Of a DNA stretch of 64,000 bases, positions 17,581 through 46,268 are shown one piece after another. The DNA is taken from positions 93,178 through 157,177 of the forward strand of contig NZ_CABVMM010000009.1 of assembly GCF_902499555.1 (NCBI RefSeq), written 5' to 3'. How positions within the stretch are numbered: the stretch's first letter is position 1; the number at the start of each line of letters is the position of its first letter. The notes beneath the pieces were generated by a model. It did no database searches, was not told where the DNA came from, and saw nothing but the letters and a program-made list of their open reading frames with translations. The stretch is from Mesonia oceanica. GTDB lineage: Bacteria; Bacteroidota; Bacteroidia; Flavobacteriales; Flavobacteriaceae. The position numbers were made by a program, and so were the translations under genes.

Positions 17581-17692
17581 TTTGTGATTTTTTTGCGCTA
17601 GGGATAGTAGCGGCATCCTTTTTTGTTGTACTTCGACAAGCTCATTATGACAACAAAAAAGATATAGCGAATAGCCCGCTCAGGCGCCCAAT

Positions 17693-24088: not shown

Positions 24089-24124
24089 TTTTTGGATATG
24101 GTAAATATACAAAGCGGTGTTAGC

Positions 24125-24181
24125 TCACGACGTTTTTCGTAAGTTATTCCACCACCAAGTATGTACAGTTAAAATTTTCAT
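24125..24181 (-). CDS. trpL: trp operon leader peptide (18 aa: MKILTVHTWWWNNLRKTS) with three consecutive Trp codons
   Basis: Reverse-strand ATG 24181..24179, TGA 24127..24125; TGG TGG TGG at 24157..24149; followed by terminator hairpin; classic ribosome-mediated attenuation layout. Confidence 0.55.
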   Translation of the reverse strand: MKILTVHTWWWNNLRKTS

Positions 24182-24225
24182 TAGTTCAAAGATAAGTAGG
24201 AAATTGAAATTTCCAAATCTTTTAG

Positions 24226-29114: not shown

Positions 29115-29510
29115 ATGAAAGATCATTTTCAAATTACCAAAAACTTTTTATTGGAGCTTAATTTCAATATTACTTATGAGAATCAAAAAGACGAAGTTAT
29201 AGTGGTACAAAAGGAAAACTTCGGCATTAAAAATTTAATTCTAGGAGTTTCACCGCCTATATTAATTATGGAGCAATTCATATTTAATATCAGCAATCAA
29301 TCAGAAAAAGTCTTTAGAAGTCTATTGCAGAAAAATCGGGATATTATTCATGGCGCTTTTGTGTTAGACGAATCTGGAACTCGTGTAATTTTTAGGGATA
29401 CACTCCAAATAGAAAATTTAGACCTTAATGAACTCGAAGGTTCGTTAAACTCATTGAGCTTATTAATGAGTGAATACTCAGACAACATCATAGAATTTTC
29501 AAAATATTAA
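29115..29510 (+). CDS. YbjN-like (T3SS-chaperone-like fold) putative sensory/chaperone protein
   Basis: 131 aa acidic protein, size and composition similar to YbjN family; first gene of cluster with pspA. Confidence 0.35.
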   Translation: MKDHFQITKNFLLELNFNITYENQKDEVIVVQKENFGIKNLILGVSPPILIMEQFIFNISNQSEKVFRSLLQKNRDIIHGAFVLDESGTRVIFRDTLQIENLDLNELEGSLNSLSLLMSEYSDNIIEFSKY

Positions 29511-29521
29511 AAACCATTATT

Positions 29522-30235
29522 ATGAACATATTTAGACGATTATTTAAAATAGGAGAGTCAGAAGCCAATTCTGCTATCGATAAAATGGAAGATCCCATTA
29601 AAATGACAGAACAAGGAATTAGGGATATGAAGCAAGATTTAGAAAAAAGCCTGGAAGCTTTAGCGCAAGTGAAAGCTTTAGCAATTCGTGCTAAAAACGA
29701 ACAGGAAGAACATCAGGATAAAGCTGAAGATTACCACAATAAAGCGATTTTAATTTTGAAAAAAGCTGAAAAAGGACAAATGGAAAAAGAGGAAGCAGAT
29801 CGTTTAGCTAAACAAGCTTTGGTAAAAAAAGAAGAAGCGCAGCAACACGTTAGCCGTTCTAAAGAAGAGGTGAAAAAGTTTAATGAATCGATCGCTCAAT
29901 TAGAAAATAATATTCAAAATATAAAAGCGAATATTAGCAATTGGGAGAACGAACTAAAAACGCTAAAAGCTCGGGTGAAGGTTTCTAATGCTACCAAGAA
30001 TTTGAATAAACAAATGGCAGAGATTGATAGCTCAAGTACCGTTTCTATGCTAGAGCGTATGAAAGAGAAAGTAGCCCAAGAAGAAGCTTTGGCTGAAGCT
30101 TATGGCGATATAGCCAATGCTTCTAAATCTATAGACGAAGAACTTGAAAAAGCCGCAGATACTTCAGAAGCAAAAGCCGATGACGATTTATCTAAACTTA
30201 AAGAACAATTAGGACTTAACAATAAAGACGCATAA
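29522..30235 (+). CDS. pspA: PspA/IM30 (phage shock protein A / Vipp1, ESCRT-III-like) family protein
   Basis: 237 aa all-helical coiled coil; N-terminus MNIFRRLFKIGESEANSAIDKMEDPIKMTEQGIRDMKQDLEK matches PspA/IM30. Confidence 0.8.
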   Translation: MNIFRRLFKIGESEANSAIDKMEDPIKMTEQGIRDMKQDLEKSLEALAQVKALAIRAKNEQEEHQDKAEDYHNKAILILKKAEKGQMEKEEADRLAKQALVKKEEAQQHVSRSKEEVKKFNESIAQLENNIQNIKANISNWENELKTLKARVKVSNATKNLNKQMAEIDSSSTVSMLERMKEKVAQEEALAEAYGDIANASKSIDEELEKAADTSEAKADDDLSKLKEQLGLNNKDA

Positions 30236-30237
30236 CC

Positions 30238-30939
30238 TTGAACGACTTGATCAACATCATATTTTCTGAAGTAAACCTTGTACTTACCTGTTTACTTCTT
30301 TTATTAGTCGTTTATTGGATATTAACGATGGTTAGCGGAATTGACTTTGACCTGGATGTTGATGTGGATATTGATGTAGACGTAGATGCCGATGCCGGGA
30401 TCGAAGGTGGGAATATGGATTTTCAAGACGTCTCGAATGCCGAAGTAGATAAAGATACGGTTGTTGGTAAACGACGTCAGCCCCTAAAATGGTGGCAAGT
30501 ATTTTTAATTTATTTCAATTTCGTAGGCTTGCCCTTTATGTTCACTTTTACCTGTTGGGTTTTTGTCTGGTGGTTTATTACTGTATTTACCACAAGCCTT
30601 ACACATAGTTACGACTCCAGTTTCGGATTTTTAATTATGATTTTAGCCTTTATTCCGGCGCTTATTATTACTAAGGTGATCACGACACCATTCAAGAATT
30701 TTTTCAAAAATCTGAATAAAGATGGAGATAAGGCAGTCGATTATATCGGGAGGCGTGGCGTTATGCTTTCAACAGTTTCCGAAGAAAAAATGGGAAATGC
30801 AGAAGTCGTCATCGATGGTAATTCATACAATATTTACGTGAAGTCGCTAGACGGTTCGACCATAGCTTATCATCAAGAAATTTTAATCATCAATAAGTCG
30901 AAAGACAACAATTATTTTTTAGTACAAATCTATAACTAA
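30238..30939 (+). CDS. NfeD/YqiJ-like inner-membrane protein (partner of flotillin)
   Basis: 233 aa; N-terminal TM, acidic DV-repeat (DLDVDVDIDVDVDADAG), 3 more TMs, C-terminal OB-like soluble region; located immediately upstream of an SPFH/flotillin gene as in E. coli yqiJK. Confidence 0.5.
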   Translation: MNDLINIIFSEVNLVLTCLLLLLVVYWILTMVSGIDFDLDVDVDIDVDVDADAGIEGGNMDFQDVSNAEVDKDTVVGKRRQPLKWWQVFLIYFNFVGLPFMFTFTCWVFVWWFITVFTTSLTHSYDSSFGFLIMILAFIPALIITKVITTPFKNFFKNLNKDGDKAVDYIGRRGVMLSTVSEEKMGNAEVVIDGNSYNIYVKSLDGSTIAYHQEILIINKSKDNNYFLVQIYN

Positions 30940-30955
30940 CTTAACTTAAATTATT

Positions 30956-33046
30956 ATGGGAGATGTTTTACAGTGGATAGCAATACCGCTTATAGGATTG
31001 GTATTTTTAATCGTGATATACTTTGCGATTATTGCAATGTTTTACAAAAAAGTGCATCAAGGCCAAGCACTTATCCGTACCGGTTTTGGAGGTACAAAAG
31101 TAGCTACCGATAAAGGGCTGTATGTCGTGCCGGTATTTCACCGTGTCGAAATTATGGACGTATCGGTAAAGAAAATTCAAATCGAGCGTCAAGCTCATGA
31201 AGGTCTTATTTGTAAAGACAATATGCGTGCCGATATAAAAGTTGCTTTTTTCGTTCGGGTTAATAACGACGTGAGTTACATAAAAAAAGTAGCACAAACT
31301 ATAGGAGTAGCACGAGCTTCTCGTATTGAAACCTTAGAAGATTTATTTGAAGCCAAATTTTCTGAAGCTTTAAAAACCGTGGGTAAAAAGTTCGAATTTA
31401 TTGAGCTTTATGAAGCCCGTAGAGAGTTTAGGGACGAGATTGTAAATATTATCGGTACCGATCTTAACGGTTATACCCTAGAAGATTGTGCGATCGATTT
31501 CTTGGAGCAAACTCCGGTACAACATCTAAAACCGGATAATATTTTAGATGCTGAAGGGATTAAGAAGATCACCGATCTTACGGCTGCTCAAAATATTAAA
31601 GCCAACTTAATTAAGCGTGATGAAGAAAAAACCATCCGTAAACAAGATGTAGAAGCACGTGAAGCCATTCTAGAATTAGATAAGCAATTAGCAGAAAAAG
31701 AAGAATCTCAAAAACGAGAAATCGCTAATATTAAAGCTAGAGAAGGTTCAGAAATTTTAAAGGTTGCTGAAGAAGAGCGCTTAAAGTCTGAAACTGCTCG
31801 TATTGCTACTGAAGAAAAAGTGAAGGTTGCCGAAGAGAATATGAACCGTCAAATTATTGTAGCTGAAAAGAATAAACTACGTACCGAGGCTGTGGAAACA
31901 GAACGAGTAGAAAAAGATCGTTTGTTGGAAGCTACAGAGAGAGAGCGCGTAGTCACTTTAGCTCAAATAGAAAAAGAAAAAGTAGTTGAAGTAGAGAAGA
32001 AAAACATACAAGATGTGATTAGAGATCGTGTCATGTTAGAAAAAGGAGTGGTAGAAGAGCAAGAAAATATGAAAGATATTGAAGCCTTTAAAACTGCCGA
32101 CCGTGAGAAGAAAGTAAAAGTAACCAATGCGGAAGCAAACGCTCAAGAAGAATTAATTAAAACCATTAAAGCTGCAGAAGCTCAAAAAGAAGCTGCCAAA
32201 CAGAAAGCAGAAGAAATTAATATAGAAGCGATGGCTCGTAAAGAAGCGAGTGAAAAAGAAGCCGAAGCTAGAAAGACATTAGCAGAAGCTCAAGCTAAAG
32301 AAGAAGCCATTATTGGTATGTCTGAAGCACAAGTAATGCATGCGAAAGCAGATGCTAACGAGCGTCAAGGTATTGTAGATGCTTCCATTATCGAGAAAAA
32401 AGCGAAAGCAGAAGCTGCAGGGATTGAAGCCAAGGCAGAAGCTTCTCGAAAAGAAGGTAAAGCAGAAGCAGAAGTGATTAAAGAGAAAGCCCTTGCCGAT
32501 GCTGCCGGAATTGAAGAAAAAGCTGCGGCCATGAAGAAGTTGGATGGTGTTGGTAAAGACCACGAAGAGTTTAAACTTCGTTTAGATAAAGAATTACAAA
32601 TTGATTTGGCACATATCAATATCCAAAAAGATATTGCCGATGCACAAGCGCAAGTTCTAGGTGATGCTTTAAAACAAGCGAAGATTGATATTGTTGGAGG
32701 TGAAACTATGTTCTTCGATAATATTGTATCGCAAATTAGTCGCGGTAAAGGTATCGACAGGTTAGTTCAAAACAGTGAGAATATTCAGCAAGTGAAAGAT
32801 TCTATTTTGGGGAGCGATGATATTCAAGGAAATCTATTAGAACGCGTTCGAGAATTTGCTGCTAAATATGGTATTTCTACCGAAGATCTCAAAAACTTAA
32901 CGATCGCCAATCTATTAATCGATTTAAAAAGCAAAACCAATAGTGATAAAGAACATACGATGTTTAGTAACCTATTGAACCTGGCTAAAGGTTTAGGATT
33001 GTCAGACAAGACCATTGGTGCCGTAGGAAGAGAGCGTTTAAGCTAA
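30956..33046 (+). CDS. Flotillin-family SPFH/band-7 protein (YqiK-like) with long E/A/K-rich coiled-coil tail
   Basis: 696 aa; N-terminal TM, SPFH domain, ~350 aa of EAKA-type heptads. Confidence 0.8.
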   Translation: MGDVLQWIAIPLIGLVFLIVIYFAIIAMFYKKVHQGQALIRTGFGGTKVATDKGLYVVPVFHRVEIMDVSVKKIQIERQAHEGLICKDNMRADIKVAFFVRVNNDVSYIKKVAQTIGVARASRIETLEDLFEAKFSEALKTVGKKFEFIELYEARREFRDEIVNIIGTDLNGYTLEDCAIDFLEQTPVQHLKPDNILDAEGIKKITDLTAAQNIKANLIKRDEEKTIRKQDVEAREAILELDKQLAEKEESQKREIANIKAREGSEILKVAEEERLKSETARIATEEKVKVAEENMNRQIIVAEKNKLRTEAVETERVEKDRLLEATERERVVTLAQIEKEKVVEVEKKNIQDVIRDRVMLEKGVVEEQENMKDIEAFKTADREKKVKVTNAEANAQEELIKTIKAAEAQKEAAKQKAEEINIEAMARKEASEKEAEARKTLAEAQAKEEAIIGMSEAQVMHAKADANERQGIVDASIIEKKAKAEAAGIEAKAEASRKEGKAEAEVIKEKALADAAGIEEKAAAMKKLDGVGKDHEEFKLRLDKELQIDLAHINIQKDIADAQAQVLGDALKQAKIDIVGGETMFFDNIVSQISRGKGIDRLVQNSENIQQVKDSILGSDDIQGNLLERVREFAAKYGISTEDLKNLTIANLLIDLKSKTNSDKEHTMFSNLLNLAKGLGLSDKTIGAVGRERLS

Positions 33047-33055
33047 ACTATTATT

Positions 33056-33086
33056 AACCTACAAGGTTTTACAAACCTTGTAGGTT
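33056..33086 (+). terminator. Perfect 14-bp palindrome AACCTACAAGGTTT-tac-AAACCTTGTAGGTT after flotillin gene
   Basis: Direct reading; shares CCTACAAGG core with hairpin at 38306-38347. Confidence 0.45.
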
Positions 33087-33184
33087 TGATCATAGATTTA
33101 GGATTGTCATCTGCTGTCAGTTTGAGACTTTCAGCGAAGCTCAATACAGGCTTAGTCAAGAACTATATAGCACCTAAAATTGAG

Positions 33185-33286
33185 CGTTACCCTGAACTTG
33201 TTTTAGGGGCTCATTCAGATGATTTCAAAATGAAGATGTGATGCTGAGTCAAGCTTGCCTGCCGGGTGGTCAGGCTCAGCATGACG
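33185..33286. repeat. REP/MITE-like elements (cgttaccctgaacttgttttaggggctcattcagatgatttc; gatgtgatgctgagtcaagcttgcctgccgggtggtcaggctcagcatgacg)
   Basis: Same word family as the trp-operon repeats. Confidence 0.6.
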
Positions 33287-33358
33287 TTAATTTTAACCAC
33301 AATCATTTCTTTTTAAAATTCAAAAAGAATTAATTAACCGCTTGTTCAAAAATTACTT

Positions 33359-36300
33359 ATGCAAGAAGAACAACAAGAACAAAACAATCAGACCTTAGAT
33401 GGTGGTACCTATGAGATTATAAAGAGCCGATTGCAAAAGCAGAAGCAAGAGCTTCAGCAGCGTTTGCAACAACTTAACGAAAGCAGAAAAGAAGTTTTCG
33501 GTTCTTTAGAAACCAAACTCATTGCCAATAATCGCATCAATACCGAGAATAATTGTATTGCTAGAGATATTGTTTCTATCGATAAGCTTTGCATCTTTGG
33601 ATACAATGTTCATTTTGGTTTACGTACCGAAATTACGCTAGATGATGTATTTAGTATTTACGAATATAAAGATCAGCAGTTTGAACCGGTTTCTTTAGCG
33701 CTTATTGAAGATAGTACTTTTCAGACCGATTTTACCAACCTTTACAAATATTACAGAAATACCATTTTTTCCAAGTTTGCCATCATCGGTAATTACTTAC
33801 ATATGGTTTTTCAGCTGAGTGATAGCGTCACCGATATAAAAACCTTCAAGTGGTTGATCAATGATGGCAAGCTAAGCTATATTGACAATCGAAGTGAACA
33901 CGAATATAAATTTCCGCAGCAGCACGAGTTCAATTGGCAACAAGCCGGAAGAGATGAACAGCGTCACGGGGAACATTCACATATTTCTATTTTAGATAAG
34001 GTTTTTGTAGAAACTATTGGTGGCGATCTCACGATAAAAATTGAAGACAACACTCACGATGGGAAAGGGATCTATAACGAACCGGTTGAATACCAAGATC
34101 AAACCTTGGATGACGGTCAGTTTAGATTTGCCAATTTAGGAAACCTCATTGTGTTAGAGATTAAACCTTTTCAGGAAGAGGCACGTTATTTTGTTTACAA
34201 CCATAAACTACAAGAGGTTCAAAAAATAGATAGCATAAAAGATGCTGCAGTGTTGCTACCCGATGAACAAGGCATCATTTTTCCGAATGGTTACTATTTG
34301 CAAACTGGGGAATATCAAATTTTTGATAGTGATACCCGCAATTTAAAATTTCAAAAGAGAATTGCTTCACCTAACGGGGAAGATTACCTTTTTGTGTTTT
34401 ACGCGCAAGATCGCGGGATGTATGTGTTAATGTCTTACAACGTGATTGAGCAAACGGTACAAACGCCAATTATTTGTAATGGTTATACCGTTCAGCCCAA
34501 TGGTGAGTTATGCTATTTTAAAGGTGAAGAGGAGCAAACCAAACACCATATGGTACAAATTTGGCAAACCCCATTTTTAAAAGGAGATATCATGCCTTCG
34601 CAACATCAAGATACGATGTTGTATAAGATAGGGAATAAGGATATTGTTCGCGCGATGGCAGAGGCCCAAGAGCTCATTAATTTATTAAGCAAAGAAGATA
34701 ATTATAGCGGACTTTATGATGATGTAGCCAAACTTTCTAAAGATATTTTAGATACTTATTATTGGCTGTCTGAAGAAGAAACCCAGCAGTTGAACCTTCC
34801 GTTATCAGAAATTAATAAAGCAGCCAATGCTGCTATTGATGAGTTTGAAAAAGTAGTTCAGCTTAAGCGGAATGCCAAGCAAGAAACAGAGAAATTTACC
34901 AAGAAAGCAGAAGAGGTTTTTTCAAAAGTAAAAAGCACTTCCTTTAAATCGATTGAAGATTTTGTAAAGCTTTTAAACCAAATGCGAACCTTACGTGGGG
35001 AAGCGATTGGTCTATATGAAATCAGGTATGTTGATGAAACCCTGATCAAATCGATAGAAGAAGAAATTGCTGAATTTACCGAAAAGATTTCTCAACGATG
35101 CGTTCAGTTTTTGTTAGATGAAAAAGCTTTGGCTCCGTATCATGAGAAGGTCGAAGAAAAAAAGATAGCGCTCGATAAAATTGAAAAAGTTATCGAAGCG
35201 AAAAATCTGGAAGAAGAAGTCAACCAAATTGCACAAGACTTAGAAATGCTTATCGAGATTGTTTCGAATCTTGATATTGAAGATACTTCGCACTCTACCA
35301 AGATCATCGATAATATTTCGTTGATTTTCGCTACGCTGAATCAATTAAAAGCGGCGATTAAAAATAAGCGGAAAAGTCTAGGGAGCAAAGAAGCTAAAGC
35401 CGATTTTGCAGCCCAATTAAAATTGATTGATCAGAGCATTATCAATTATTTGGATATTGCTGACACGACCGAGAAAACCGAAGATTTTCAAACTAAAATT
35501 TCAATTCAGTTAGAAGAGTTAGAAGGAAAGTTTGCCGATTTTGAAGAGTTTATCAGCCAAATCATTGAAAAGCGGGAGGAAGTTTACAATGCCTTTGAAG
35601 CGCGGAAAAATGCTATTACCGAAAAGCGAAACAAGCGAAGCTTAGCTTTAGAAAATGCCGCCGATCGCATTCTAAAAGGTGTGGATAAGCGTGCGTTAAA
35701 TTTAGGTTCTGCTACCGAGATCAATGGGTATTTTGCTTCCGATCTAATGGTGAATAAACTTCGGGATATTATTCAGCAATTAAAAGATTTGGACAATTCC
35801 GGGCGAGCAGAAGAGCTAGAAACCAAGCTAAAAGTCGCTCGGGAAGATGCCTTACGTAAGCTAAAAGATAAGCTAGAATTATACGAAGATGGCGATAACG
35901 TCATCAAGTTTGGGAAGCACAAATTTGGCGTGAATAAGCAAACGCTTGATTTAACAATTGTTTATCGTAATCATCAACTTCAATACCATTTAACGGGAAC
36001 CGATTTTTATGAAGAAGTGACCAATCCCATCTTATTAAATTCAAGAAGCCTTTGGGATCAAGAATATATTTCTGAAAATGAACAGGTGTATCGAAGTGCC
36101 TATTTGGCTTATAAATTATTCAGCAGTCTTCCTTTTTCAAAGCTAGCAAATGCCAATTCAGAAGAACTATTAAAAACTGTTCAAGAAGAAAGTAGTAGCA
36201 ATTATGCCGAAGGTTATGTAAAAGGAGTTCACGACAGAGATGCGGCTGATATTTTAGAAGTCTTGGTACGTAAACATCAAGAACTGGGTTTACTTCGCTA

Positions 36301-38227
36301 TTCGCCTAAAACCAGGGCTAAAGCTCAGTTTTTTTGGCATAGTTTACCAGAAGAACTTCAACAGAAATTTAATGAAGTTTTAAAATCTTCCGGAGAAGTT
36401 TTGAGCTTTTTTCCTGATACGAAAGAATACGATTTTTTAATTCAGCAATTAGAAAGTGCTATTTTTCAAGTGGCAGAAAACTCGGTCTTACTTTCTACGT
36501 CAAATAGCAAAGCGATGGCCAATTACTTGTTTGAAGAATTGCAGGGCGACGATCAGTTTCAAATAAGTGGAGATGCTTTGAAGATCAAAGAAGGTTTCTT
36601 GAAGACGCTTCAGGAAAAGCAAGCCGATTTAAAATTTAAGAACAGCTATGAAAAATTAGACGAGCTTGAAGCTAAAATTCAGCTAATTCGGCAATGGGTA
36701 AATTCTTTCCTAAGAACATCTTCTGCTAATTATGAGGAAGTCTATGTAGATGAGGTAGTGGCTATCATCTTGTTTAGCGATGATTCTGTTGAGAAAGTTA
36801 AGCATATTTCGGCAAGGGAAACCATTCAAGATTTAAAAGGCGATCACCCGACTTTAAAAGAAGGGGAGTTTCAATTTAACTATCATGAGTTTATTGCTGC
36901 TTTAGCCGCATATAATGAAGAAATTGTACCGGCTTACCAAGCGTTTAAAAAAGCAAAACAAGAAGTTACTGAAAGTTTAAAAGAAGATTTAAAACTGGAA
37001 GAATTGAAACCAAGGGTGTTGACTTCTTTTGTGAGAAACAAGCTCATCAACGAAGTGTATTTACCGCTTTTTGGAGATAATTTATCGAAGCAGTTAGGAA
37101 CTGTGGGCGATTACAAACGCACCGACAGAATGGGAATGTTGCTGCTCATTTCGCCACCGGGTTACGGAAAAACCACTCTAATGGAATATATTGCCAATCG
37201 GTTAGGATTGGTATTTATGAAAATCAATGGTCCTGCGATAGGACACGAAGTCACTTCGGTAGATCCGGCGGCAGCCAACAACTCGGCAGCGCGAGAAGAA
37301 CTAAAGCGACTGAATTTGGCTTTTGAAATGGGCAATAATGTCATGTTGTACTTAGATGATATTCAGCATTGCCATCCTGAATTTTTACAGAAATTTATTT
37401 CGCTCTCTGATGGAACCCGAAAAATAGAAGGGGTTTATAAAGAGAAATCAAAAACCTACGATTTACGCGGAAAGAAGTTTTGTGTGATTATGGCAGGAAA
37501 CCCATATACCGAAAGTGGAGAAAAGTTTAGGATTCCCGATATGTTGGCCAACCGAGCCGATATTTACAACTTAGGAGATATTATTGGTGATACCGCACAT
37601 TTATTCAAATTAAGTTTAATCGAAAATGCACTCACCTCTAACCCGACTTTACAGCAATTAAGCAGTAAACATTTTGATGATATTTATCGACTGATTGATC
37701 GTGTGGAAAATCAAAATCCTGAAATTCAGCTGGAAGGTAATCATACGCCACAAGAAGTGCAGGACTATGTTTCGGTTTTAGAGAAAGTAATTACGATTAG
37801 AGATACTGTGTTGAGGGTGAACGAAACCTACATCAAATCGGCTGCGATGGAAGATGAATATAGAACAGAACCGGCATTTAAATTACAAGGTTCTTATCGT
37901 GATATGAATAAACTGATCGGTAAAGTCGTGCCGATTATGAATAAAGAAGAACTTGCTACTTTATTACTGTCTCATTATGAAAGTGAATCGCAAACGCTCA
38001 CCACTTCTGCAGAAGCGAATTTATTAAAGTTTAAAGAGCTTCAACAAAATTTGACTGCCCAAGAAAATGAACGTTGGAATGTGATTAAAGAAACCTTTCT
38101 GAAAAACAATAAACTGAAAGGCTTAGGCAATAAAAATGAAATGGCTCAGGTATTGAACCAAATGGTGGCCTTCACAGATAATCTAGAAGGCATTAAACGA
38201 GTTTTGGAGCAAGGTTTTATGAAATAG
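33359..38227 (+). CDS. Giant (1622 aa) multidomain protein with C-terminal AAA+ ATPase domain of the MoxR/dynein-like (AAA_5) type; function unknown
   Basis: Walker A LLISPPGYGKTTLMEYIA (~aa 1265), Walker B VMLYLDDIQH, sensor-1 CVIMAGNP; Q/E-rich N-terminal coiled coil, beta-rich region aa ~60-420, long central helical/coiled-coil region. Confidence 0.7.
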   Translation: MQEEQQEQNNQTLDGGTYEIIKSRLQKQKQELQQRLQQLNESRKEVFGSLETKLIANNRINTENNCIARDIVSIDKLCIFGYNVHFGLRTEITLDDVFSIYEYKDQQFEPVSLALIEDSTFQTDFTNLYKYYRNTIFSKFAIIGNYLHMVFQLSDSVTDIKTFKWLINDGKLSYIDNRSEHEYKFPQQHEFNWQQAGRDEQRHGEHSHISILDKVFVETIGGDLTIKIEDNTHDGKGIYNEPVEYQDQTLDDGQFRFANLGNLIVLEIKPFQEEARYFVYNHKLQEVQKIDSIKDAAVLLPDEQGIIFPNGYYLQTGEYQIFDSDTRNLKFQKRIASPNGEDYLFVFYAQDRGMYVLMSYNVIEQTVQTPIICNGYTVQPNGELCYFKGEEEQTKHHMVQIWQTPFLKGDIMPSQHQDTMLYKIGNKDIVRAMAEAQELINLLSKEDNYSGLYDDVAKLSKDILDTYYWLSEEETQQLNLPLSEINKAANAAIDEFEKVVQLKRNAKQETEKFTKKAEEVFSKVKSTSFKSIEDFVKLLNQMRTLRGEAIGLYEIRYVDETLIKSIEEEIAEFTEKISQRCVQFLLDEKALAPYHEKVEEKKIALDKIEKVIEAKNLEEEVNQIAQDLEMLIEIVSNLDIEDTSHSTKIIDNISLIFATLNQLKAAIKNKRKSLGSKEAKADFAAQLKLIDQSIINYLDIADTTEKTEDFQTKISIQLEELEGKFADFEEFISQIIEKREEVYNAFEARKNAITEKRNKRSLALENAADRILKGVDKRALNLGSATEINGYFASDLMVNKLRDIIQQLKDLDNSGRAEELETKLKVAREDALRKLKDKLELYEDGDNVIKFGKHKFGVNKQTLDLTIVYRNHQLQYHLTGTDFYEEVTNPILLNSRSLWDQEYISENEQVYRSAYLAYKLFSSLPFSKLANANSEELLKTVQEESSSNYAEGYVKGVHDRDAADILEVLVRKHQELGLLRYSPKTRAKAQFFWHSLPEELQQKFNEVLKSSGEVLSFFPDTKEYDFLIQQLESAIFQVAENSVLLSTSNSKAMANYLFEELQGDDQFQISGDALKIKEGFLKTLQEKQADLKFKNSYEKLDELEAKIQLIRQWVNSFLRTSSANYEEVYVDEVVAIILFSDDSVEKVKHISARETIQDLKGDHPTLKEGEFQFNYHEFIAALAAYNEEIVPAYQAFKKAKQEVTESLKEDLKLEELKPRVLTSFVRNKLINEVYLPLFGDNLSKQLGTVGDYKRTDRMGMLLLISPPGYGKTTLMEYIANRLGLVFMKINGPAIGHEVTSVDPAAANNSAAREELKRLNLAFEMGNNVMLYLDDIQHCHPEFLQKFISLSDGTRKIEGVYKEKSKTYDLRGKKFCVIMAGNPYTESGEKFRIPDMLANRADIYNLGDIIGDTAHLFKLSLIENALTSNPTLQQLSSKHFDDIYRLIDRVENQNPEIQLEGNHTPQEVQDYVSVLEKVITIRDTVLRVNETYIKSAAMEDEYRTEPAFKLQGSYRDMNKLIGKVVPIMNKEELATLLLSHYESESQTLTTSAEANLLKFKELQQNLTAQENERWNVIKETFLKNNKLKGLGNKNEMAQVLNQMVAFTDNLEGIKRVLEQGFMK

Positions 38228-38743: not shown

Positions 38744-38971
38744 TCAATCTTCCCAACCACAAAGGCTTCTTTTTAGTTTTTTAGCGTCTTCTAAGCTTAT
38801 CTTTTTAATACACGCTTTACAGGCATTTAGCCCTCTGCAATCATTTGTATAATGGTATTTCTTAGCGGTTTGACTATCGCAGATAAATACCGATTTTTCT
38901 GAACTTACCAGCGCTAAGTTGATACTGGAAAATGTAATGAAAACAATAAAAAAGAGTAGTTTCTGTTTCAT
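38744..38971 (-). CDS. Small secreted Cys-rich protein (75 aa, 6 Cys)
   Basis: Signal peptide MKQKLLFFIVFITFSSINLALVSS; CDSQ...CRGLNACKAC...C pattern. Confidence 0.4.
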   Translation of the reverse strand: MKQKLLFFIVFITFSSINLALVSSEKSVFICDSQTAKKYHYTNDCRGLNACKACIKKISLEDAKKLKRSLCGWED

Positions 38972-39254
38972 AATAATTGGTTGTAATAATAAGATTCTAT
39001 TAAAAAATTGAGTTTGTGATTTATAAAATCAGCGCTCAACTAATTTACAAAATATACTATAACTTAAACCGTTGCCTATTAAAAAATAAAATTCATCATC
39101 ATTTTCAAGGTATTTCTGGAACAAACGCTAGGGTAAAAGATTTTCGCAATTCTATAGTTGCCTATAAAATTATTGGTATTACAGGGCATCGAAATAGTAA
39201 GAGCTTTAAATATATTATCAAGTAAATTTTTTGGCTACAATTAGTACAGTAAAT

Positions 39255-39372
39255 AGAACTTTTAGAAAATATAATTATATGTAAACACATATAATATTTA
39301 GTTTTGTATTTTAATTATATGGAATCACATATAATTTTGTATATTTAACTGTATTTATACGTTAAAACATAT
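39255..39372 (+). promoter_or_regulatory. Three palindromic operator-like repeats TATATGT-N4/5-ACATATA(AT) upstream of hipB-like gene
   Basis: atatgtaaacacatataat; ttatatggaatcacatataa; aaaacatataATG (overlapping start codon). Confidence 0.5.
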
Positions 39373-39373
39373 A

Positions 39374-39595
39374 ATGGAATCATTAGCATCATTTGTAAAA
39401 GCACGAAGAAAAGAAGTAAACTTAACCCAAGAAGAGTTTGCAAATCGAGCAGGGGTAGCATTAACCGTTATCCGTAAGATAGAACAAAACCAAACAAATT
39501 TGAACCTGGATAAAGTAAATCAGGTGTTAAAAATGTTTGGTCATCAACTAGTACCGGTTAGTTTAAAAGATATAGAAGTTAATGAGGCAAGCTAA
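39374..39595 (+). CDS. hipB: HipB-like XRE-family HTH protein (73 aa)
   Basis: HTH_XRE motif LTQEEFANRAGVALTVIRKIEQNQTNLNLDKVNQVLKMFG; first gene of 3-gene operon with 14-nt overlap to next ORF. Confidence 0.65.
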   Translation: MESLASFVKARRKEVNLTQEEFANRAGVALTVIRKIEQNQTNLNLDKVNQVLKMFGHQLVPVSLKDIEVNEAS

Positions 39596-39914
39596 GATTT
39601 TTTACGATACTGCTTATTGTGGTAAACTAACAGAGACCAATGATGGAGAGTTCGTATTTAAATATGATGAAAATTACGTGCGTGACTATCCCAATCAATT
39701 TATCACTTTTACCATGCCTGTTCGTAAAAAAGAATATAAAGAAAAACGCCTGTTTGCCTTTTTTGAAGGTTTAATTCCTGAAGGTTGGCTATTGGATATT
39801 GCTTCCAAAAATTGGAAAGTTAATAGAAACGACCGAATGGGATTATTGTTGACTTGTTGTAAAGACTGTATAGGAGCAGTAAGTGTTCACCCCATAGCAA
39901 CTGATGATGAGTAA
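39582..39914 (+). CDS. hipS: HipS-like protein = stand-alone HipA N-terminal (couple_hipA) domain (110 aa), putative antitoxin
   Basis: FFEGLIPEGWLLDIASKNWKVNRNDRMGLLLTCCKDCIGAVSVHP matches HipA N-domain consensus (LLPEG...GxDCxGA). Confidence 0.65.
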   Translation: MRQAKIFYDTAYCGKLTETNDGEFVFKYDENYVRDYPNQFITFTMPVRKKEYKEKRLFAFFEGLIPEGWLLDIASKNWKVNRNDRMGLLLTCCKDCIGAVSVHPIATDDE

Positions 39915-40848
39915 GTGTTTATACTGTTATAAAGAGGTTTCGGGAGAAAGTGACTTTCATCAAGCTTGTAGTTTAAGGTTTTTTGGAACAAAAACTCCTC
40001 CTAAAATTGCTCATTCTATTCAAGAAATGAAGGAATTAGCTAAACAGGTTGTAGAACGTAGCATAGCTGTTCCTGGGGTGCAACCAAAAATATCGATGTC
40101 TATATTTGATAATAATAGCGATCAGAGGCTTACCGTGGTAGGGGCATTAGGAGGAAATTATATTTTTAAACCACCTTCAGAACATTTTCCTGAAATGCCT
40201 GCCAATGAACATGTCACGATGAAAATGGCTGAATTATTTAATATTTCCGTTGTCCCACATTCATTGATCAGGCTTTCTTCCGGTGAATTATCTTATATCA
40301 CCAAACGAATAGATCGTAAAGAAGATGGAAGTAAAATTCATATGATCGATATGTTTCAGGTCGTAGAAGCATTTGATAAATACCGAGGATCGATGGAACG
40401 TATAGGGAAGGCGGTTCTTGAATATGCAGAAAATACGCTATTAGATATTTTGCGTCTTTTTGAATTAACTGTTTTTAGTTATCTAACGGGAAATAACGAT
40501 ATGCACTTAAAAAACTTCTCCCTAATAAAAGCAGATTATGGATGGACGCTTTCTCCAGCTTATGATCTGCTAAATATTTCTATTGTAAATCCGGACGATC
40601 AGGAAGAACTGGCTTTAACACTTGCCGGGAAAAAGAAAAAAATAACTAGAAAATTATTAGTCGATTTTGGTCTTGGTTTAGAATTAACCCCAAAACAAAT
40701 AAACGGGGTTTTTAAAAGATTTCAAAAGTCTAAAAATAAAGCTATTGACTTAATTCATAATTCGTTTTTAAGTGAAGAAATGCAGAAGTCTTATATAAAA
40801 TTATTAGAAAATAGGTATGAAATTCTCTTGAAAGAAAATGAGTTGTAA
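39904..40848 (+). CDS. hipT: HipT-like Ser/Thr kinase = HipA C-terminal catalytic domain (314 aa), putative toxin
   Basis: VPGVQPKISMSI (HipA 'GaQpKfsl' motif), catalytic loop GNNDMHLKNFSL, SPAYDLLN motif; N-terminal CxxC...H..C extension. Confidence 0.7.
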   Translation: MMSKCLYCYKEVSGESDFHQACSLRFFGTKTPPKIAHSIQEMKELAKQVVERSIAVPGVQPKISMSIFDNNSDQRLTVVGALGGNYIFKPPSEHFPEMPANEHVTMKMAELFNISVVPHSLIRLSSGELSYITKRIDRKEDGSKIHMIDMFQVVEAFDKYRGSMERIGKAVLEYAENTLLDILRLFELTVFSYLTGNNDMHLKNFSLIKADYGWTLSPAYDLLNISIVNPDDQEELALTLAGKKKKITRKLLVDFGLGLELTPKQINGVFKRFQKSKNKAIDLIHNSFLSEEMQKSYIKLLENRYEILLKENEL

Positions 40849-40974
40849 ATCAAAATAATTTATGTTGAATAGTTCGGAGAAATTCTAGTAAGCAAATTTT
40901 ATATTGTATACGGAAGTTTTAACTAATATTTTATAGAATCTAAAGATTCTTTTTTTTGATTCTTAACGAGATGA

Positions 40975-41000
40975 AACAGGTAAGTAATCTACCTGTTTCT
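40975..41000 (+). terminator. Terminator hairpin AAACAGGTA-agtaatc-TACCTGTTT + T-rich tail after hipT
   Basis: Perfect 9-bp stem directly read; separates hipBST from the CRISPR array. Confidence 0.5.
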
Positions 41001-41038
41001 TGTTTATTGTGTTAAATGTTAGGGTAATATATCTTTAA

Positions 41039-41866
41039 GTTGTGAATACCTTTCCAACTAAAGGCTGTTACAACGGTTGCAAAACCATTGAAAAGGAGTT
41101 GCCTGTTGTGAATACCTTTCCAACTAAAGGCTGTTACAACATGGTAGGGAAACATAACAAAGACGAAAGTGTTGTGAATACCTTTCCAACTAAAGGCTGT
41201 TACAACATTCAATCAAACAATTGTATTATAAAATTAGTTGTGAATACCTTTCCAACTAAAGGCTGTTACAACCAACAATGTATGGGCGATGAATGCCGCC
41301 TTGTTGTGAATACCTTTCCAACTAAAGGCTGTTACAACCAGATCGCTAGACAAAAGATTAAAAGACGGGTTGTGAATACCTTTCCAACTAAAGGCTGTTA
41401 CAACATGGCGTTCAAGACAATTGGAGACAAATAGGTTGTGAATACCTTTCAAACTAAAGGCTGTTACAACTTGCGGGATATGGTTATGATGAGATCGCTC
41501 GTTGTGAATACCTTTCAAACTAAAGGCTGTTACAACATTACCAGATGTTTTAACCCCTGTTACTATGTTGTGAATACCTTTCCAACTAAAGGCTGTTACA
41601 ACTTGTGACGATTGTATAACAAAAGAATTCTAGTTGTGAATACCTTTCCAACTAAAGGCTGTTACAACCAATACACTCCTCACAAGGCTTTTCGGTATGT
41701 TGTGAATACCTTTCCAACTAAAGGCTGTTACAACAAAAAATTTGGTATCCCTATTGAATACGATGTTGTGAATACCTTTCCAACTAAAGGCTGTTACAAC
41801 CATCGATCTTTCTTCACAAACAAGCGACTTGTTGTGAATACCTTTCCAACTAAAGGCTGTTACAAC
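41039..41866 (-). CRISPR. Type VI-B CRISPR array: 13 repeats x 36 nt (GTTGTGAATACCTTTCCAACTAAAGGCTGTTACAAC on +; transcribed form likely GTTGTAACAGCCTTTAGTTGGAAAGGTATTCACAAC), 12 spacers x 30 nt
   Basis: Repeats at 41039,41105,41171,41237,41303,41369,41435,41501,41567,41633,41699,41765,41831 (each +35); repeats 7 and 8 carry the same C->A change (TTTCAAACT); 36/30 nt geometry is diagnostic of Cas13b arrays; minus-strand orientation inferred from similarity of the reverse-complement to the published B. zoohelcum DR. Confidence 0.95.
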
Positions 41867-41961
41867 CTATTTTATATAAGGTATTGTTAATTAATGTGTT
41901 TATTGAAAAACCTTCAGATAAAATGATGTCAAAGAGCTTTACAAAGCTAAAATCATAATGC

Positions 41962-44900
41962 TTATTTAAATTCTAGTATGGTTTGATTTGTATATTCTAG
42001 GAATAATTCATTAAAATTAATAGACACTGCATTAGGCACATTTTTATAAATTTCATCGTAATAAATTTTTCTTGGTAATTGATTATGTGAAAACTTATTA
42101 CGTATCATTACTAATAAAAAAGCTTTTTCCATAATTTTTGATTGTTTTTTCAACTCATCTATAGGAGTAGTATCAAAATCTTTTTTGGAAATTAGCCATT
42201 TTGCGTCTTCTTCAGAAACTAATTCTAAGCTTTTAAGGAATGTGGTCAAATATTTATTAAAATTAGGATGTTCATTAGTATCAATTAATGTGGGTAATTT
42301 CTTGATCATATATTTTTCAAATTCCTGAATACTTTTTAGTAAATAATCTCTTCGTATTACCTCATAAGAATTTGCTTTTAGTTCTAAAACTTCTTCTAAC
42401 TCTGTTTTATTCCAAATCTTCTGAGGTTTATATTCAAAAAGGGTTTGTACTTTTTGACTAGCAATAAATTTTTTGAATTTTCCAAGTTCTTTTAGTTTAA
42501 CTTGGGGTTCGTAGATATTTTTACTGCAATAAGGTACCGTTAATGTCCATGCAGAAGTAGATTTAATGATGTTTGCTGAATTATCACCAGTAGTTTTATG
42601 GCTTTGGATTAAGGCAGCCTCGATTTCTGCTTTACGTTCTGTTTGTGTTTTATAAATATCACTGAGATTTAAATCTAAATGTTCAGCATCCTCAGGTAGG
42701 TATAATTCATTAAAAATAATACTGGCCATTTTAGCTAGTAATACATCTTGTTGTTTTACTTTGTTGATTTTAGATCCTTGAACTCTAATAAATCGCTTTT
42801 CTGTTTTTTCCTGTTCACCTGATAAATAAGCCGATTTATAATCTCGATCCCAACTATAGAATTTTTGATAATCAGTATGTTGGTTCCAGGCAACATACCA
42901 GTCGGCAAAACATTCCGGATTTTCCTGTATACTTTTACCTTTGATATAAGTAGGTTTGTGATCAAAAACACCTTTTGGAAACTGCATGGGCTTAACCAAT
43001 AGTTTTTCTACCTGTTCTTCTATAGTATCAATAACATACAGTCGCTTATGAAATAAATTCCATAGATGTTGTTGTTTTATGAATTTATCTAAAATCTTTT
43101 TGTTTGATCTAATTCCATTCAACTGATCTTTGAATCTTTGGAAGGTTTCTTTTCTGTTGTTTAAATAAGAGGTATAGAATGAAATAAAATCTCGCTTATC
43201 AAATGATCTTCTAATCCCATTGTTCCATAGATAAGCTTCGTTCTTAAAATCCCAAACCTCTTCGAGCAAGCTTAAGGGCTCTTTAGGTTGAATATCATAG
43301 AAAGCCAAAGATTTTTGCAATTGGCTATGATGCTGTCCTCGCCAATTTTGCCTACTTCCTTTTGGCATAAAACGCTTTAAATCATTAGCTAGCCAGGTAA
43401 CTTGTAGCCCTATTTCTTTATTGGTAAAAACATATTTTCGCTTTTGTTTGGGATCGTTTCGTTCTTTAATATGTAGAGCTATGGTTTGTAGTTTGTCATT
43501 GGTAACCGCTATTTCTTTTTCTATTGCGAGTTGAAGTTTGTCCAGATTTACTTCCTTTTTTTGTTTAGCTTTTAGAAGGTTTTTGGTAATCTGTCCTTTA
43601 GAAATATCGTCACCAGCTTTATAGTTGGTCAGTACATTATAGCGTTCTGCAATCTTTTGAGCTATTATTATTTCAATTTCTTCTGGAGTCTTTTTAGTTA
43701 AAACTAGGTGTAATAACGCAGGTAACTCATTTAAAGACAGCATTGCAACTGGAGCCAGTTTTTCAGGTTTACCCAAATCCTGTAAAATAGCATCCGGTTT
43801 TATTTTATTATCGGTTCTAACTTTATATTCTTCTGGATGATCCGATTTGTAACTAGAGTTTCGTTTTTTTAAACGACCTGCCACAATTTTCACCTCTTTA
43901 GGAAAAAAGTGTTCATTTAAATTGAGATGAATAGGAATGTTGTTTCCTACGAAATTGTAAGATGGATTAGGATATAGTTGTAGTCCTATGCTTTGGTGAT
44001 TTTCTTTTTCTTCAAAATATTTTTGTTTTAATTGAGCAGCCTCGCTAAGTTTTGCGAATGCTTTAATTTTTTCTTTTACGATTCTCTCAGTTACATATTT
44101 TGTGCCTTCAATAGGCTTTTCCCTTTTATCGTGTACATAATTTCCTAAATGAAGTTGAAACCGTAGGGTTGGAAAATCTACAAATTCATCTAAAAATCGT
44201 AATGCAAAATATGCGAATTTATTTTCATAGCGCTTACGGATTACAGGATGAATAACGGTGGCTTTATCTAAACTTTCTGAATTTTCTTCTTTAAGATATT
44301 CATTCATATCTTCTAGAAATTCATTCTTTAATTCTTCAGGAAGTACCTGGTAAAGCTCATCTGGGACTTTGCTTAATTCATCTACAATTTGCGCAAGTAG
44401 TGTGTCTTTTGTGAACGTAGTCGTAAATCTGTTTTTTAAACCTTTAAAACCTAAATAGCCAAACACCCAGTGGGTAGCCATATATTTTAAGCTATTATTT
44501 TTCTTATTTATAGGATTTTCTGGGTTAACAATCAGTTTTGCTTTAAAACCTTTTACCCGGCTTCTTAGATCTTCACTTTGCTTTTTGGTAAGGAAAAGTC
44601 CAAGAAGAAAAATAATCCCACTTTCAGATATGGTTACACCATTTTCAGTATCGATATCTTCAGTAGGGACAGCACTATAATATTTGCTTATAGTGTTTTC
44701 TTTAGGAAGAAGATGGGAAAAACTGTCATTCAAAATAGCGTTGGTGATAGCCTCTTTATCATTTAAATTAACTTTTTTTCCTTCTCTTTTTAACTTTTTA
44801 AGGTCTTCTAATTTTAATTTTTCTAATTGTGCTAATTCTTCAATCAACCCTTTTTTTAGCAATTGTTTGGAAGCATCAGTTTTCATTCGATGTTTTTTAA

Positions 44901-45366
44901 CATCATTAGCTACTGCTAAAAAAAGATCGTCTAATAATTTATAAGTTTCAGGAAATACAGGGATAGGTTTGTGGAAATGATGCGTGTAGAAATTACGATA
45001 ATCTCTGATTAAATTTTTGAGTACCTTGAGAGAATTCTTAAAGTAATTTCTTTGTTCAGAAATTAATTGGTTTTTAGGTACATTTTCGAACCTTTTATGG
45101 GATGTAGGTAAGTATAAATATCGAATAACAGGTAAATTTTTTTGTAGAAATTCGACACCTAATTGATATTCTGCTATAGCCTTGTCTTGAGTGAAAAAAT
45201 CTAATATACAAGACTTTGGTTTCATCCCAAACTTTTCTTTAAAAGCCTTGGAAAGATCGTTAATGTTATTTTGAGCTAAGTTAAAATATCCTCCAAAATA
45301 ATGTTTATCTTCTATACTGGCATAATTATACTCTAAGCGTTTTGCTAAATAATCGGTTTCATTCAT
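41962..45366 (-). CDS. cas13b: Cas13b (C2c6) RNA-guided RNase, type VI-B effector, 1134 aa
   Basis: HEPN1 RNFYTH at aa 124-129 (nt 44997..44980) and HEPN2 RNKFSH at aa 1089-1094 (nt 42102..42085); long stretches near-identical to B. zoohelcum Cas13b (e.g. HPVIRKRYENKFAYFALRFLDEFVDFPTLRFQLHLGNYVHD; GIIFLLGLFLTKKQ); adjacent 36/30 array. Confidence 0.95.
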   Translation of the reverse strand: MNETDYLAKRLEYNYASIEDKHYFGGYFNLAQNNINDLSKAFKEKFGMKPKSCILDFFTQDKAIAEYQLGVEFLQKNLPVIRYLYLPTSHKRFENVPKNQLISEQRNYFKNSLKVLKNLIRDYRNFYTHHFHKPIPVFPETYKLLDDLFLAVANDVKKHRMKTDASKQLLKKGLIEELAQLEKLKLEDLKKLKREGKKVNLNDKEAITNAILNDSFSHLLPKENTISKYYSAVPTEDIDTENGVTISESGIIFLLGLFLTKKQSEDLRSRVKGFKAKLIVNPENPINKKNNSLKYMATHWVFGYLGFKGLKNRFTTTFTKDTLLAQIVDELSKVPDELYQVLPEELKNEFLEDMNEYLKEENSESLDKATVIHPVIRKRYENKFAYFALRFLDEFVDFPTLRFQLHLGNYVHDKREKPIEGTKYVTERIVKEKIKAFAKLSEAAQLKQKYFEEKENHQSIGLQLYPNPSYNFVGNNIPIHLNLNEHFFPKEVKIVAGRLKKRNSSYKSDHPEEYKVRTDNKIKPDAILQDLGKPEKLAPVAMLSLNELPALLHLVLTKKTPEEIEIIIAQKIAERYNVLTNYKAGDDISKGQITKNLLKAKQKKEVNLDKLQLAIEKEIAVTNDKLQTIALHIKERNDPKQKRKYVFTNKEIGLQVTWLANDLKRFMPKGSRQNWRGQHHSQLQKSLAFYDIQPKEPLSLLEEVWDFKNEAYLWNNGIRRSFDKRDFISFYTSYLNNRKETFQRFKDQLNGIRSNKKILDKFIKQQHLWNLFHKRLYVIDTIEEQVEKLLVKPMQFPKGVFDHKPTYIKGKSIQENPECFADWYVAWNQHTDYQKFYSWDRDYKSAYLSGEQEKTEKRFIRVQGSKINKVKQQDVLLAKMASIIFNELYLPEDAEHLDLNLSDIYKTQTERKAEIEAALIQSHKTTGDNSANIIKSTSAWTLTVPYCSKNIYEPQVKLKELGKFKKFIASQKVQTLFEYKPQKIWNKTELEEVLELKANSYEVIRRDYLLKSIQEFEKYMIKKLPTLIDTNEHPNFNKYLTTFLKSLELVSEEDAKWLISKKDFDTTPIDELKKQSKIMEKAFLLVMIRNKFSHNQLPRKIYYDEIYKNVPNAVSINFNELFLEYTNQTILEFK

Positions 45367-45837
45367 GCTATTTTAAAAAAAAATGAAAAGGTAAGATACA
45401 CAATAGATGTTTTTAGTTCAATTAATTTTAATCAGAAAATTAAAGAATTTATTTTTTATTTTAATCTTGACCTTATATGATTCAATTTATCATCCTGATT
45501 GTTATAGCTCAATAATTTATTATTCCCTTTAGTGTAAATTTCTATTGATGTCTGAACCTTTTTTTCTGACACCTTGGTTGTCTATAAATGAAATTCCTCA
45601 ACCAATTTTAGTTTGAATTTTATTCTTTTTAAGGTTAAAAACTAAATCATCAATAGAGTCAGAAATGTCTATAGCTTTGTAAATTTCTTCTTTCATATTG
45701 ATGCTTCGATAGGCTTTAGAAATAAATGCCTTTTGTGCTTTCAAGCTTTCTTTTTACTTCTCGTAGATTATATTTTTTCTCAATAAGACCTAAAAATACA
45801 TACTGTCAATTCAAGTGTTTGTCACCTATAAAAAATA

Positions 45838-45865
45838 AACCCCGTAAACACAGGGCTTACGGGGT
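45838..45865 (-). terminator. Terminator hairpin (ccccgtaa..ttacgggg) + T-run downstream of tmRNA on minus strand
   Basis: ccccgtaaacacagggcttacgggg with ttttttat following on minus strand. Confidence 0.6.
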
Positions 45866-45881
45866 TGTAGAGTGGAGTCGG

Positions 45882-46268
45882 GGAGATTCGAACTCCCGTC
45901 CAAACAAGCAATTCAATAGCTTTCTACACGCTTATTTTTCACTTCAATTTTCGAGAAAGATCTGGCAGAAAACCTCCCAATCTTTCCTTAACCTTTAAGA
46001 TTTCAATAGCCCTTAAAGGTATCGAGCTACCTAGATTTACTTTATCGGTGCCTCTAGTTGGAACGCCATAAATCAAGGCTTTCCAGAGACATCTTAGCCC
46101 TATGCCTTGCATAGGTTAAGGTAATCTTACTTTAGTTCAGATTACGCAGCTAAGGCGTAATTATTTTCGCCGTTTAAAAAAGTTTGAAATATGAGATTTA
46201 CGAGCTGTATCCCAGCGCTCGACGTGCTTACTACTCAATTAGACTCGCTGTCAAAACCAGTCGACCCC
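45882..46268 (-). ncRNA. ssrA: tmRNA (SsrA), tag peptide (G)ENNYALAA
   Basis: 5' GGGGTCGACTGGTTTTGACAG...; internal ORF GGC GAA AAT AAT TAC GCC TTA GCT GCG TAA (46172..46143) = GENNYALAA*; 3' end GGACGGGAGTTCGAATCTCCCCGACTCCAC matches canonical tmRNA T-arm/acceptor. Confidence 0.9.

Follow-up and report, generated by a model that had tools for sequence, protein, structure and literature searches.

A stretch of 64,000 nucleotides from Mesonia oceanica (contig NZ_CABVMM010000009.1, positions 93,178 to 157,177; hereafter the window) carries a cas13b gene that is followed on the same strand by a CRISPR array. With a probability of roughly 0.88, this locus is a stand-alone type VI-B CRISPR-Cas system of the Bergeyella zoohelcum (VI-B1) branch that lacks the accessory gene csx27 and resides in a marine Mesonia-like flavobacterium, its function being assigned by homology. 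An earlier sequence-only reading of the same DNA had described a complete Cas13b locus without accessory genes. The coordinates and counts given there are correct and the strand, which was left unstated, is the minus strand for all of its elements.

The effector is a Cas13b protein with both catalytic dyads

The cas13b coding sequence (41962..45366, minus strand) is an open reading frame (ORF) of 3405 nt with an ATG start that, stop codon included, remains uninterrupted over its 3.4 kb and translates into a protein of 1134 aa. The NCBIfam equivalog model for Cas13b (NF038190, VI_Cas13b) matches this protein with 860 bits (cutoff 150) over profile positions 2-1064 out of 1066, and both Cas13b models of PADLOC match it as well (E 9e-259 and 3e-182). 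A search of the PDB with the single protein sequence matched only one solved structure, the Cas13b of B. zoohelcum (6AAY, E 1.9e-121). When a profile of 20 sequences was used instead, the match to 6AAY was full-length (E 2.4e-232) and the matches to the Cas13b structures of Prevotella buccae (6DTD, E 1e-30) and Prevotella sp. P5-125 (8WF8, E 1e-9) were partial, covering approximately residues 215-450. An AlphaFold2 model of the protein (mean pLDDT 80.4, pTM 0.59) was compared with the PDB using Foldseek, and all 11 matches at E<=0.001 were Cas13b, Cas13h or Cas13bt structures. The top six were Cas13b structures with 6AAY in first place (E 1.8e-49), followed by Cas13h and Cas13bt3, and nothing else reached E<1. 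The global TM-scores of these matches were only ~0.4, probably because the domain arrangement of the free model differs from that of the RNA-bound structures. Profile, structure-sequence and fold searches thus all assign the protein to Cas13b, as the sequence-only reading had proposed.

The two HEPN motifs that the same reading had placed near the protein termini are found at residues 124-129 (HEPN1, RNFYTH, 44980..44997, minus strand) and residues 1089-1094 (HEPN2, RNKFSH, 42085..42102, minus strand). In a pairwise alignment with the B. zoohelcum protein (BzCas13b), R124/H129 align to R116/H121 and R1089/H1094 to R1177/H1182, the dyad residues whose replacement by alanine abolishes RNA cleavage by BzCas13b (10.1101/092577). 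Furthermore, R124, H129, R1089, N1090 and H1094 are invariant in an alignment of 20 sequences (alignment A1). The claim that long blocks of the protein are near-identical to BzCas13b is overstated: a single block of ~40 aa (approximately residues 371-410, VIHPVIRKRYE...) reaches 85% identity, but the overall identity is only 31% over 1057 aligned positions and <4% of all 40-aa windows reach 60%.

The CRISPR array has VI-B geometry and the orientation of cas13b

Read base by base, the array (41039..41866, minus strand) resolves into 13 repeats, each 36 nt long, that alternate with 12 spacers of exactly 30 nt in a strict 66-nt period. The array begins 95 nt downstream of cas13b on the same strand, and its leader-proximal first repeat, when read in the direction of cas13b, is located at 41831-41866. 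The repeat on the cas13b strand is GTTGTAACAGCCTTTAGTTGGAAAGGTATTCACAAC, with the ends GTTG...CAAC. Eleven out of the 13 repeats are identical, and the two at 41435 and 41501 carry one G to T change (cas13b strand) within the predicted loop. Chance cannot account for thirteen near-perfect 36-mers with such regular spacing. The predicted fold of the repeat (-8.5 kcal/mol) consists of a terminal GUUG(U)/(A)CAAC stem, an inner GCCUUU/AAAGGU stem and the loop AGUUGG, which reads AGUUUG in the two variant repeats and leaves their predicted fold unaltered.

The orientation of the array was determined by matching the repeat column by column to those of 22 relatives whose cas13b gives the reading direction, among them the repeat of B. 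zoohelcum, which has been characterised experimentally. All 22 align to the window repeat without gaps and share the GTTG...CAAC ends and a (G/A)AAGG(G/T)TA core, and this match in orientation places the array on the cas13b strand. A consensus fold of the 23 repeats retains the terminal GUUG/CAAC stem and the inner stem, with compensatory changes in three out of four inner-stem pairs. Type VI-B arrays are known to consist of 36-nt repeats and 30-nt spacers and to yield 66-nt CRISPR RNAs (crRNAs) with the spacer at the 5' end (10.1101/092577). The window array agrees with this description in its 36-nt repeats with pairing GUUG/CAAC ends and a U-rich loop and in its 30-nt spacers. The thirteen repeats, twelve spacers, canonical geometry and cas13b strand of the sequence-only reading all hold. 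The twelve spacers are all unique. Tandem-repeat rows with periods of 132 and 198 had hinted that some spacers might resemble each other, but pairwise local alignment gives a maximum score of 19 compared with a null 95th percentile of 20.

The leader between cas13b and the array (95 nt, 41867..41961, minus strand) was studied by sequence inspection and a regular-expression scan. It holds a Bacteroidetes-type -7-like motif (TAGCTTTG, 41942-41949) that may act as a promoter, and an 8-nt anti-repeat (AATACCTT, 41878-41885) that is complementary to AAGGTATT within the first repeat (41837-41844). The predicted minimum-energy fold of the leader together with the first repeat is -13.4 kcal/mol as compared with -8.5 kcal/mol for the repeat alone, and the repeat hairpin is disrupted in it. 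Boltzmann sampling gives a probability of 0.95-1.0 that the hairpin is fully open and pairs with the leader. Hairpin opening at the window locus does not differ significantly from that caused by shuffled leaders (p 0.10-0.35), because shuffled leaders often open the weak repeat hairpin too. By an energy criterion, the change in folding energy (ddG) at the window locus is 5.3 kcal/mol versus 2.9 +/- 1.7 kcal/mol for shuffled leaders (p=0.10). Over 20 related loci the leader-repeat effect has a combined Fisher p of 9e-7, and it amounts to 12-16 kcal/mol in several relatives.

In eight relatives (L004, L012, L016, L020, L022, L032, L036 and L054) the leader anti-repeats are predicted to pair with nearly the whole first repeat, with -18 to -32 kcal/mol for leader and first repeat versus about -9 to -11 kcal/mol for the repeat alone. 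Pairing of a VI-B leader with the first repeat, which blocks the production of an extraneous crRNA, has been described previously (Migur et al. 2026, PMC13187072), and the predicted folds of the strong anti-repeat leaders of these relatives independently reproduce that leader-repeat hairpin. The window leader resembles the published case in having an 8-nt anti-repeat and a predicted pairing with the first repeat, and differs from it in the weakness of the effect (5.3 kcal/mol against the 12-16 kcal/mol seen in several relatives). Overall, its predicted pairing is consistent with the published mechanism.

No accessory gene accompanies the effector

The genes nearest to cas13b and the array are ssrA, which encodes the transfer-messenger RNA (tmRNA), and an AlaDH-like gene upstream, the convergent hipBST genes downstream, and an exo/endo-phosphatase gene. 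The interval that extends from the terminator hairpin of ssrA to the cas13b start codon (45367..45857, minus strand) falls within the strain-specific segment described below. It presumably contains the cas13b promoter, and its longest ORF is <=48 aa. No ORF >48 aa exists between ssrA and cas13b, nor between the array and hipT if frames that traverse the repeats are set aside. The Csx27 models of PADLOC and NCBIfam did not match any six-frame ORF within 38.2-46.6 kb of the window, and as a control the same models matched csx27 of B. zoohelcum and of a Prevotella metagenome-assembled genome at E 1e-56 to 1e-95. A hidden Markov model built from 11 Csx27 sequences also gave no match among all ORFs of 50 aa or more across the 64 kb. 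The absence of csx28 follows from the lack of a candidate ORF, for which there is no room, and from negative PADLOC and PDB scans of the flanking ORFs, made with Csx28 models that lack a positive control; ten small ORFs that neighbour cas13b at other loci, taken as candidates for such a control, produced 0 PADLOC matches. A 75-aa signal-peptide protein (38744-38971) was considered as an accessory and rejected, as it is part of the conserved chromosomal backbone and is present in a relative without cas13b. The sequence-only reading had found no cas1, cas2, csx27 or csx28 within 3 kb of the locus, which is confirmed here and extended to ORFs of at least 100 aa across the whole window.

The effector groups with the csx27-less VI-B1 relatives

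The subtypes VI-B1 and VI-B2 were defined by two branches of the Cas13b tree, with csx28 almost invariable in VI-B2 and csx27 "less consistently present in VI-B1 loci" (10.1101/092577). A total of 52 related loci from GTDB genomes, oriented by cas13b, were chosen for comparison. The array is located 95-310 nt downstream of cas13b in most relatives with a detected array. Twelve out of the 52 loci contain csx27 immediately upstream of cas13b (11 full-length genes and a twelfth, in L038, that is cut by a contig end), and the clade around the window protein has no csx27 within 10 kb. A quick neighbour-joining tree was computed, without VI-B2 sequences or support values, from 44 sequences (a single one for each locus, with a few that may not be Cas13b), and it groups the window protein with those of Mesonia hippocampi, Neptunitalea and Polluticaenibacter. 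In the same tree this group lies inside a large csx27-less clade (Chryseobacterium, Flavobacterium, Sphingobacterium and others) whose sister clades carry csx27, and the csx27 loci of B. zoohelcum and Capnocytophaga are located further out.

The effector is best assigned to the VI-B1 (B. zoohelcum) branch as a csx27-less member, mainly because its profile match is full-length to the B. zoohelcum protein and partial to the two Prevotella proteins, to which the tree adds its placement. The locus has no ~220-aa multi-transmembrane neighbour of the csx27 type, and it has neither of the VI-B2 hallmarks, an adjacent csx28 (encoding a small transmembrane protein with a divergent HEPN domain) and a Prevotella-type effector. 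Since csx27 is inconsistent among VI-B1 loci (10.1101/092577), its absence does not exclude VI-B1. The earlier view that the subtype could not be assigned was therefore too pessimistic. The description of a minimal single-effector locus without accessory genes stands, but this state is already documented and comes as no surprise.

A protein of ~125 aa of the XRE family of helix-turn-helix (HTH) proteins, with CapH-like and RstR-like matches, is encoded beside several csx27-less cas13b genes (e.g., L014, 14197-14577). It was seen in five Chryseobacterium genomes and a Sporocytophaga (L013, L014, L027, L030, L039 and L042) and could be a regulator associated with the csx27-less clade.

The locus lies in a strain-variable slot that borders the ssrA 3' end

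The window was compared by blastn with the syntenic region of a related genome (GCA_008692195.1, locus L056), whose backbone shows 80-93% nucleotide identity to the window. Homology ends at 39051 and resumes at 45858, which defines a strain-specific segment of 6.8 kb (39052..45857) containing hipBST, the array and cas13b. The GC content of the segment is 29-33% compared with 35-39% in the flanks. The ssrA gene (45870-46268, minus strand; Rfam RF00023, 135 bits) encodes the tag peptide GENNYALAA, and its terminator hairpin (45838-45866, minus strand) separates it from the region upstream of cas13b. The two genomes diverge directly after the last tmRNA bases, so that the strain-specific segment starts exactly at the tmRNA 3' end. 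In L056 the segment is replaced by 2.95 kb with a single gene (6266-8959) for an 897-aa SF1 helicase (AAA_11/AAA_12), which has PADLOC matches to PDC-S37, MkoA/MkoC (Mokosh) and Hhe. The presence of a defence-type helicase in this slot marks it as a defence hot spot with alternative cargo, and the comparison of the two genomes makes the Cas13b locus one such cargo at the ssrA 3' end. A classical island integrated at ssrA was considered and rejected, as the tmRNA 3' end is not directly repeated anywhere within 28-45.8 kb, the two synteny breakpoints are free of terminal repeats and no integrase was found.

A tRNA or tmRNA gene was found within ~1.7 kb in seven out of 36 loci scanned, the window included. 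The six others (L013, L014, L030, L041, L052 and L053) have tRNA genes within this distance of cas13b or the array, mostly tRNA-Ser and, in B. zoohelcum, a Lys/Leu cluster. This suggests that hot spots adjacent to tRNA and tmRNA genes are a common home of VI-B cassettes.

The second cargo of the segment is a hipB-hipS-hipT toxin-antitoxin module (39374..40848, plus strand; Pfam HTH_3, Couple_hipA and HipA_C) that is convergent with the array. It encodes a 73-aa HTH protein (HipB), a 110-aa protein corresponding to the HipA N-terminal domain (HipS) and a 314-aa kinase (HipT). The best PDB matches are the Legionella proteins HipT(Lp) (8ezr, E 1e-47) and HipS(Lp) (7vkb_B, E 2e-13), and HipT also matches the PADLOC candidate PDC-M03A. 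None of the other 52 loci has a HipA-like gene beside cas13b. The hipBST module is co-cargo of the variable segment and not a demonstrated part of the CRISPR system. It is highly unlikely that Cas13b and HipBST form a functional pair in which collateral RNA damage depletes the labile antitoxin, frees the HipT kinase and reinforces dormancy; if they did, HipBST would fill the role that a Csx-type accessory has in other VI-B loci. The ssrA-adjacent slot and the HipBST neighbour are an interesting context and one that is typical of defence islands.

Host and remaining window features

The AlaDH-like protein encoded next to the locus is 84% identical to that of M. phycicola and 92% identical to that of GCA_008692195.1, and judged by such sequence similarities the flanking proteins place the host in Mesonia. 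A metagenome contig from an independent assembly (ENA ERZ841423) is 99.995% identical to the window over 18.5 kb and includes the exact Cas13b sequence. Outside the locus, the window consists of housekeeping genes, including a trp operon and a BCCT transporter gene. A Bacteroidetes tryptophan peptide leader RNA is located upstream of the trp operon (24081-24201, minus strand; Rfam, 81 bits) and a Flavo-1 sRNA is found at 17590-17685 (plus strand; Rfam, 60 bits); both fit a host within the Flavobacteriia.

Three further regions were recorded. A cluster of five same-strand genes (29115-38227, plus strand) encodes a CesT_Tir_1-like protein (131 aa), a PspA/IM30 protein (237 aa), a 233-aa protein, an SPFH/Band-7 flotillin-like protein (696 aa) and a 1622-aa protein with DUF3686, DUF7902 and AAA ATPase domains. 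The gene for the 1622-aa ATPase is conserved in L056, no convincing PADLOC matches were found for the cluster, and its function is possibly membrane stress or repair. A 253-aa LexA/phage-repressor-like protein with HTH_3 and Peptidase_S24 domains (28086-28847, minus strand) is encoded at the edge of a region that differs between Mesonia species. Finally, a second segment that is absent from L056 (48658-51892) encodes a cytochrome-c-like lipoprotein of 366 aa and an FG-GAP/ASPIC protein of 666 aa that carries a T9SS sorting domain.

Discussion

From homology to characterised VI-B systems we infer expression of the locus, crRNA processing, RNA cleavage and a role in defence. The cas13b gene and the downstream array would be transcribed from the minus strand, and Cas13b would bind the 36-nt repeat hairpin and cut the precursor into ~66-nt crRNAs with the 30-nt spacer at the 5' end and the 36-nt repeat at the 3' end. 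Once a crRNA pairs with a complementary transcript, which presumably derives from a phage, the composite HEPN1/HEPN2 RNase (R124/H129 and R1089/H1094) would become active and cleave target and bystander RNA such that the infection is stopped or the cell arrested. New spacers would need an adaptation module located elsewhere in the genome. A strain-variable slot with a helicase as alternative cargo fits a defence function.

Several results weigh against a working VI-B1 defence system. A blastn search with the whole array (11-nt words) against the INPHARED phages and PLSDB plasmids gave a best match at chance level (E=9), an exact-match search of IMG/VR with 21-24-nt cores of eight out of the 12 spacers (1, 2, 4, 6, 7, 8, 10 and 12) gave none, and the search for self-targets in the 64-kb window and 55 related loci found nothing beyond chance matches of 14-18 nt. 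A motif scan revealed no clear Bacteroidetes-type promoter upstream of cas13b; the 25 sites of a sigma-70 promoter scan are in line with the 24 expected and carry no weight either way. Moreover, PADLOC identified no cas1, cas2 or other Cas protein gene among the other 45 window ORFs of at least 100 aa and, with no adaptation genes in the 64 kb, any ongoing spacer acquisition is hypothetical. The lack of cas1 and cas2 and of any spacer match in the phage, plasmid and viral contigs searched would also suit a cassette that is intact in sequence but immunologically idle, either recently transferred or decaying, which acquires no spacers and has no current targets. The same applies to the lack of sister arrays: neither the exact repeat nor a version degenerate at three loop positions matched JGI metagenome contigs, and there is thus no visible spacer turnover. 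However, the 3.4-kb ORF is uninterrupted and keeps every conserved catalytic residue, the only differences among the 13 repeats are the single loop bases of two of them, and the twelve spacers all differ, their mutual similarity being no greater than that of shuffled controls. VI-B loci normally lack cas1 and cas2 (10.1101/092577), so that their absence here is the normal state. An idle cassette is therefore improbable. Missing protospacers are to be expected, as the phages of marine flavobacteria are poorly sampled.

The DNA under study is limited to 64 kb and the Csx28 models have no positive-control validation, and the system might thus use an accessory (Csx27, Csx28 or another) that is encoded elsewhere in the genome. 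This is very improbable, because known csx27 genes are located immediately upstream of cas13b (11/11 full-length genes, the twelfth in L038 being cut by a contig end), the Csx27 models that perform strongly on known csx27 have no match in the window, the whole surrounding clade lacks csx27 within 10 kb, and BzCas13b works without Csx27, which only dampens its activity (10.1101/092577). Spacers without known foreign targets could also point to a role outside defence, in which host transcripts are regulated or dormancy is induced through self-targeting. Such a role is barely credible, given that no spacer matches the window or the 55 related loci beyond chance and that the defence-type helicase found as alternative cargo fits defence. 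A stand-alone VI-B1 locus with a defence function thus remains the preferred explanation.

The locus is an ordinary addition to the well-known Cas13b family, and the accessory-less state is in the literature for its branch. It provides one more apparently functional Cas13b orthologue (judged by its intact sequence) of 1134 aa, from a marine Mesonia lineage, that could be screened for RNA knock-down or editing. The sequence-only reading claimed direct biotechnological interest for an RNase with intact catalytic residues, but the practical gain is small since public data already hold over 100 separate Cas13b clusters. With clustering at 50% identity, 112 clusters have matches at E<=1e-30, and the window protein shares an existing cluster with the M. 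hippocampi protein. Beyond this, the locus neatly illustrates the csx27-less VI-B1 clade and shows a CRISPR-Cas13b cassette in a strain-variable defence slot whose boundary is exactly the tmRNA 3' end.

Comparison with known systems

The VI-B2 proteins of P. buccae and Prevotella sp. P5-125 (6DTD and 8WF8) share the family and the fold with the window protein (Foldseek E 5.5e-23 and 1.3e-21), and according to the literature their loci have the same repeat and spacer geometry (10.1101/092577). They differ from the window in the partial profile match and in csx28, which is almost invariable in VI-B2 and absent here. The VI-B1 system of B. zoohelcum (6AAY) is more similar. Its Cas13b is the full-length profile match and the top fold match, with HEPN dyads that correspond residue for residue; its 36-nt GUUG...CAAC repeat has 26 out of 36 bases identical to the window repeat, with compensatory changes in the inner stem and the same spacer length of 30 nt; and its array is likewise located downstream of cas13b on the same strand. 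The two systems differ in that the protein identity is 31% and the window protein is shorter (1134 aa versus 1224 aa), that B. zoohelcum has csx27 immediately upstream of cas13b and the window locus has none, and that the window array shows no "long" repeats.

The closest named relative is found in M. hippocampi DSM 29568 (GGR32_002220, annotated by NCBI as "hypothetical protein", locus L002/L004). The genomic context of this locus is unlike that of the window: upstream lie a type I restriction-modification system and, ~10 kb away at the locus edge, an RteC gene, and there is no tmRNA gene; furthermore, its array is shorter and its leader-repeat hairpin stronger (-20.2 kcal/mol, p=0.04). The two loci agree in other respects: the M. 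hippocampi protein (1135 aa) is 67% identical to the window protein, csx27 is likewise lacking, and an array ~100 nt downstream of cas13b is built from a nearly identical repeat (GTTGTAACAGCCTTTATTTTGGAAGGTATTCACAAC).

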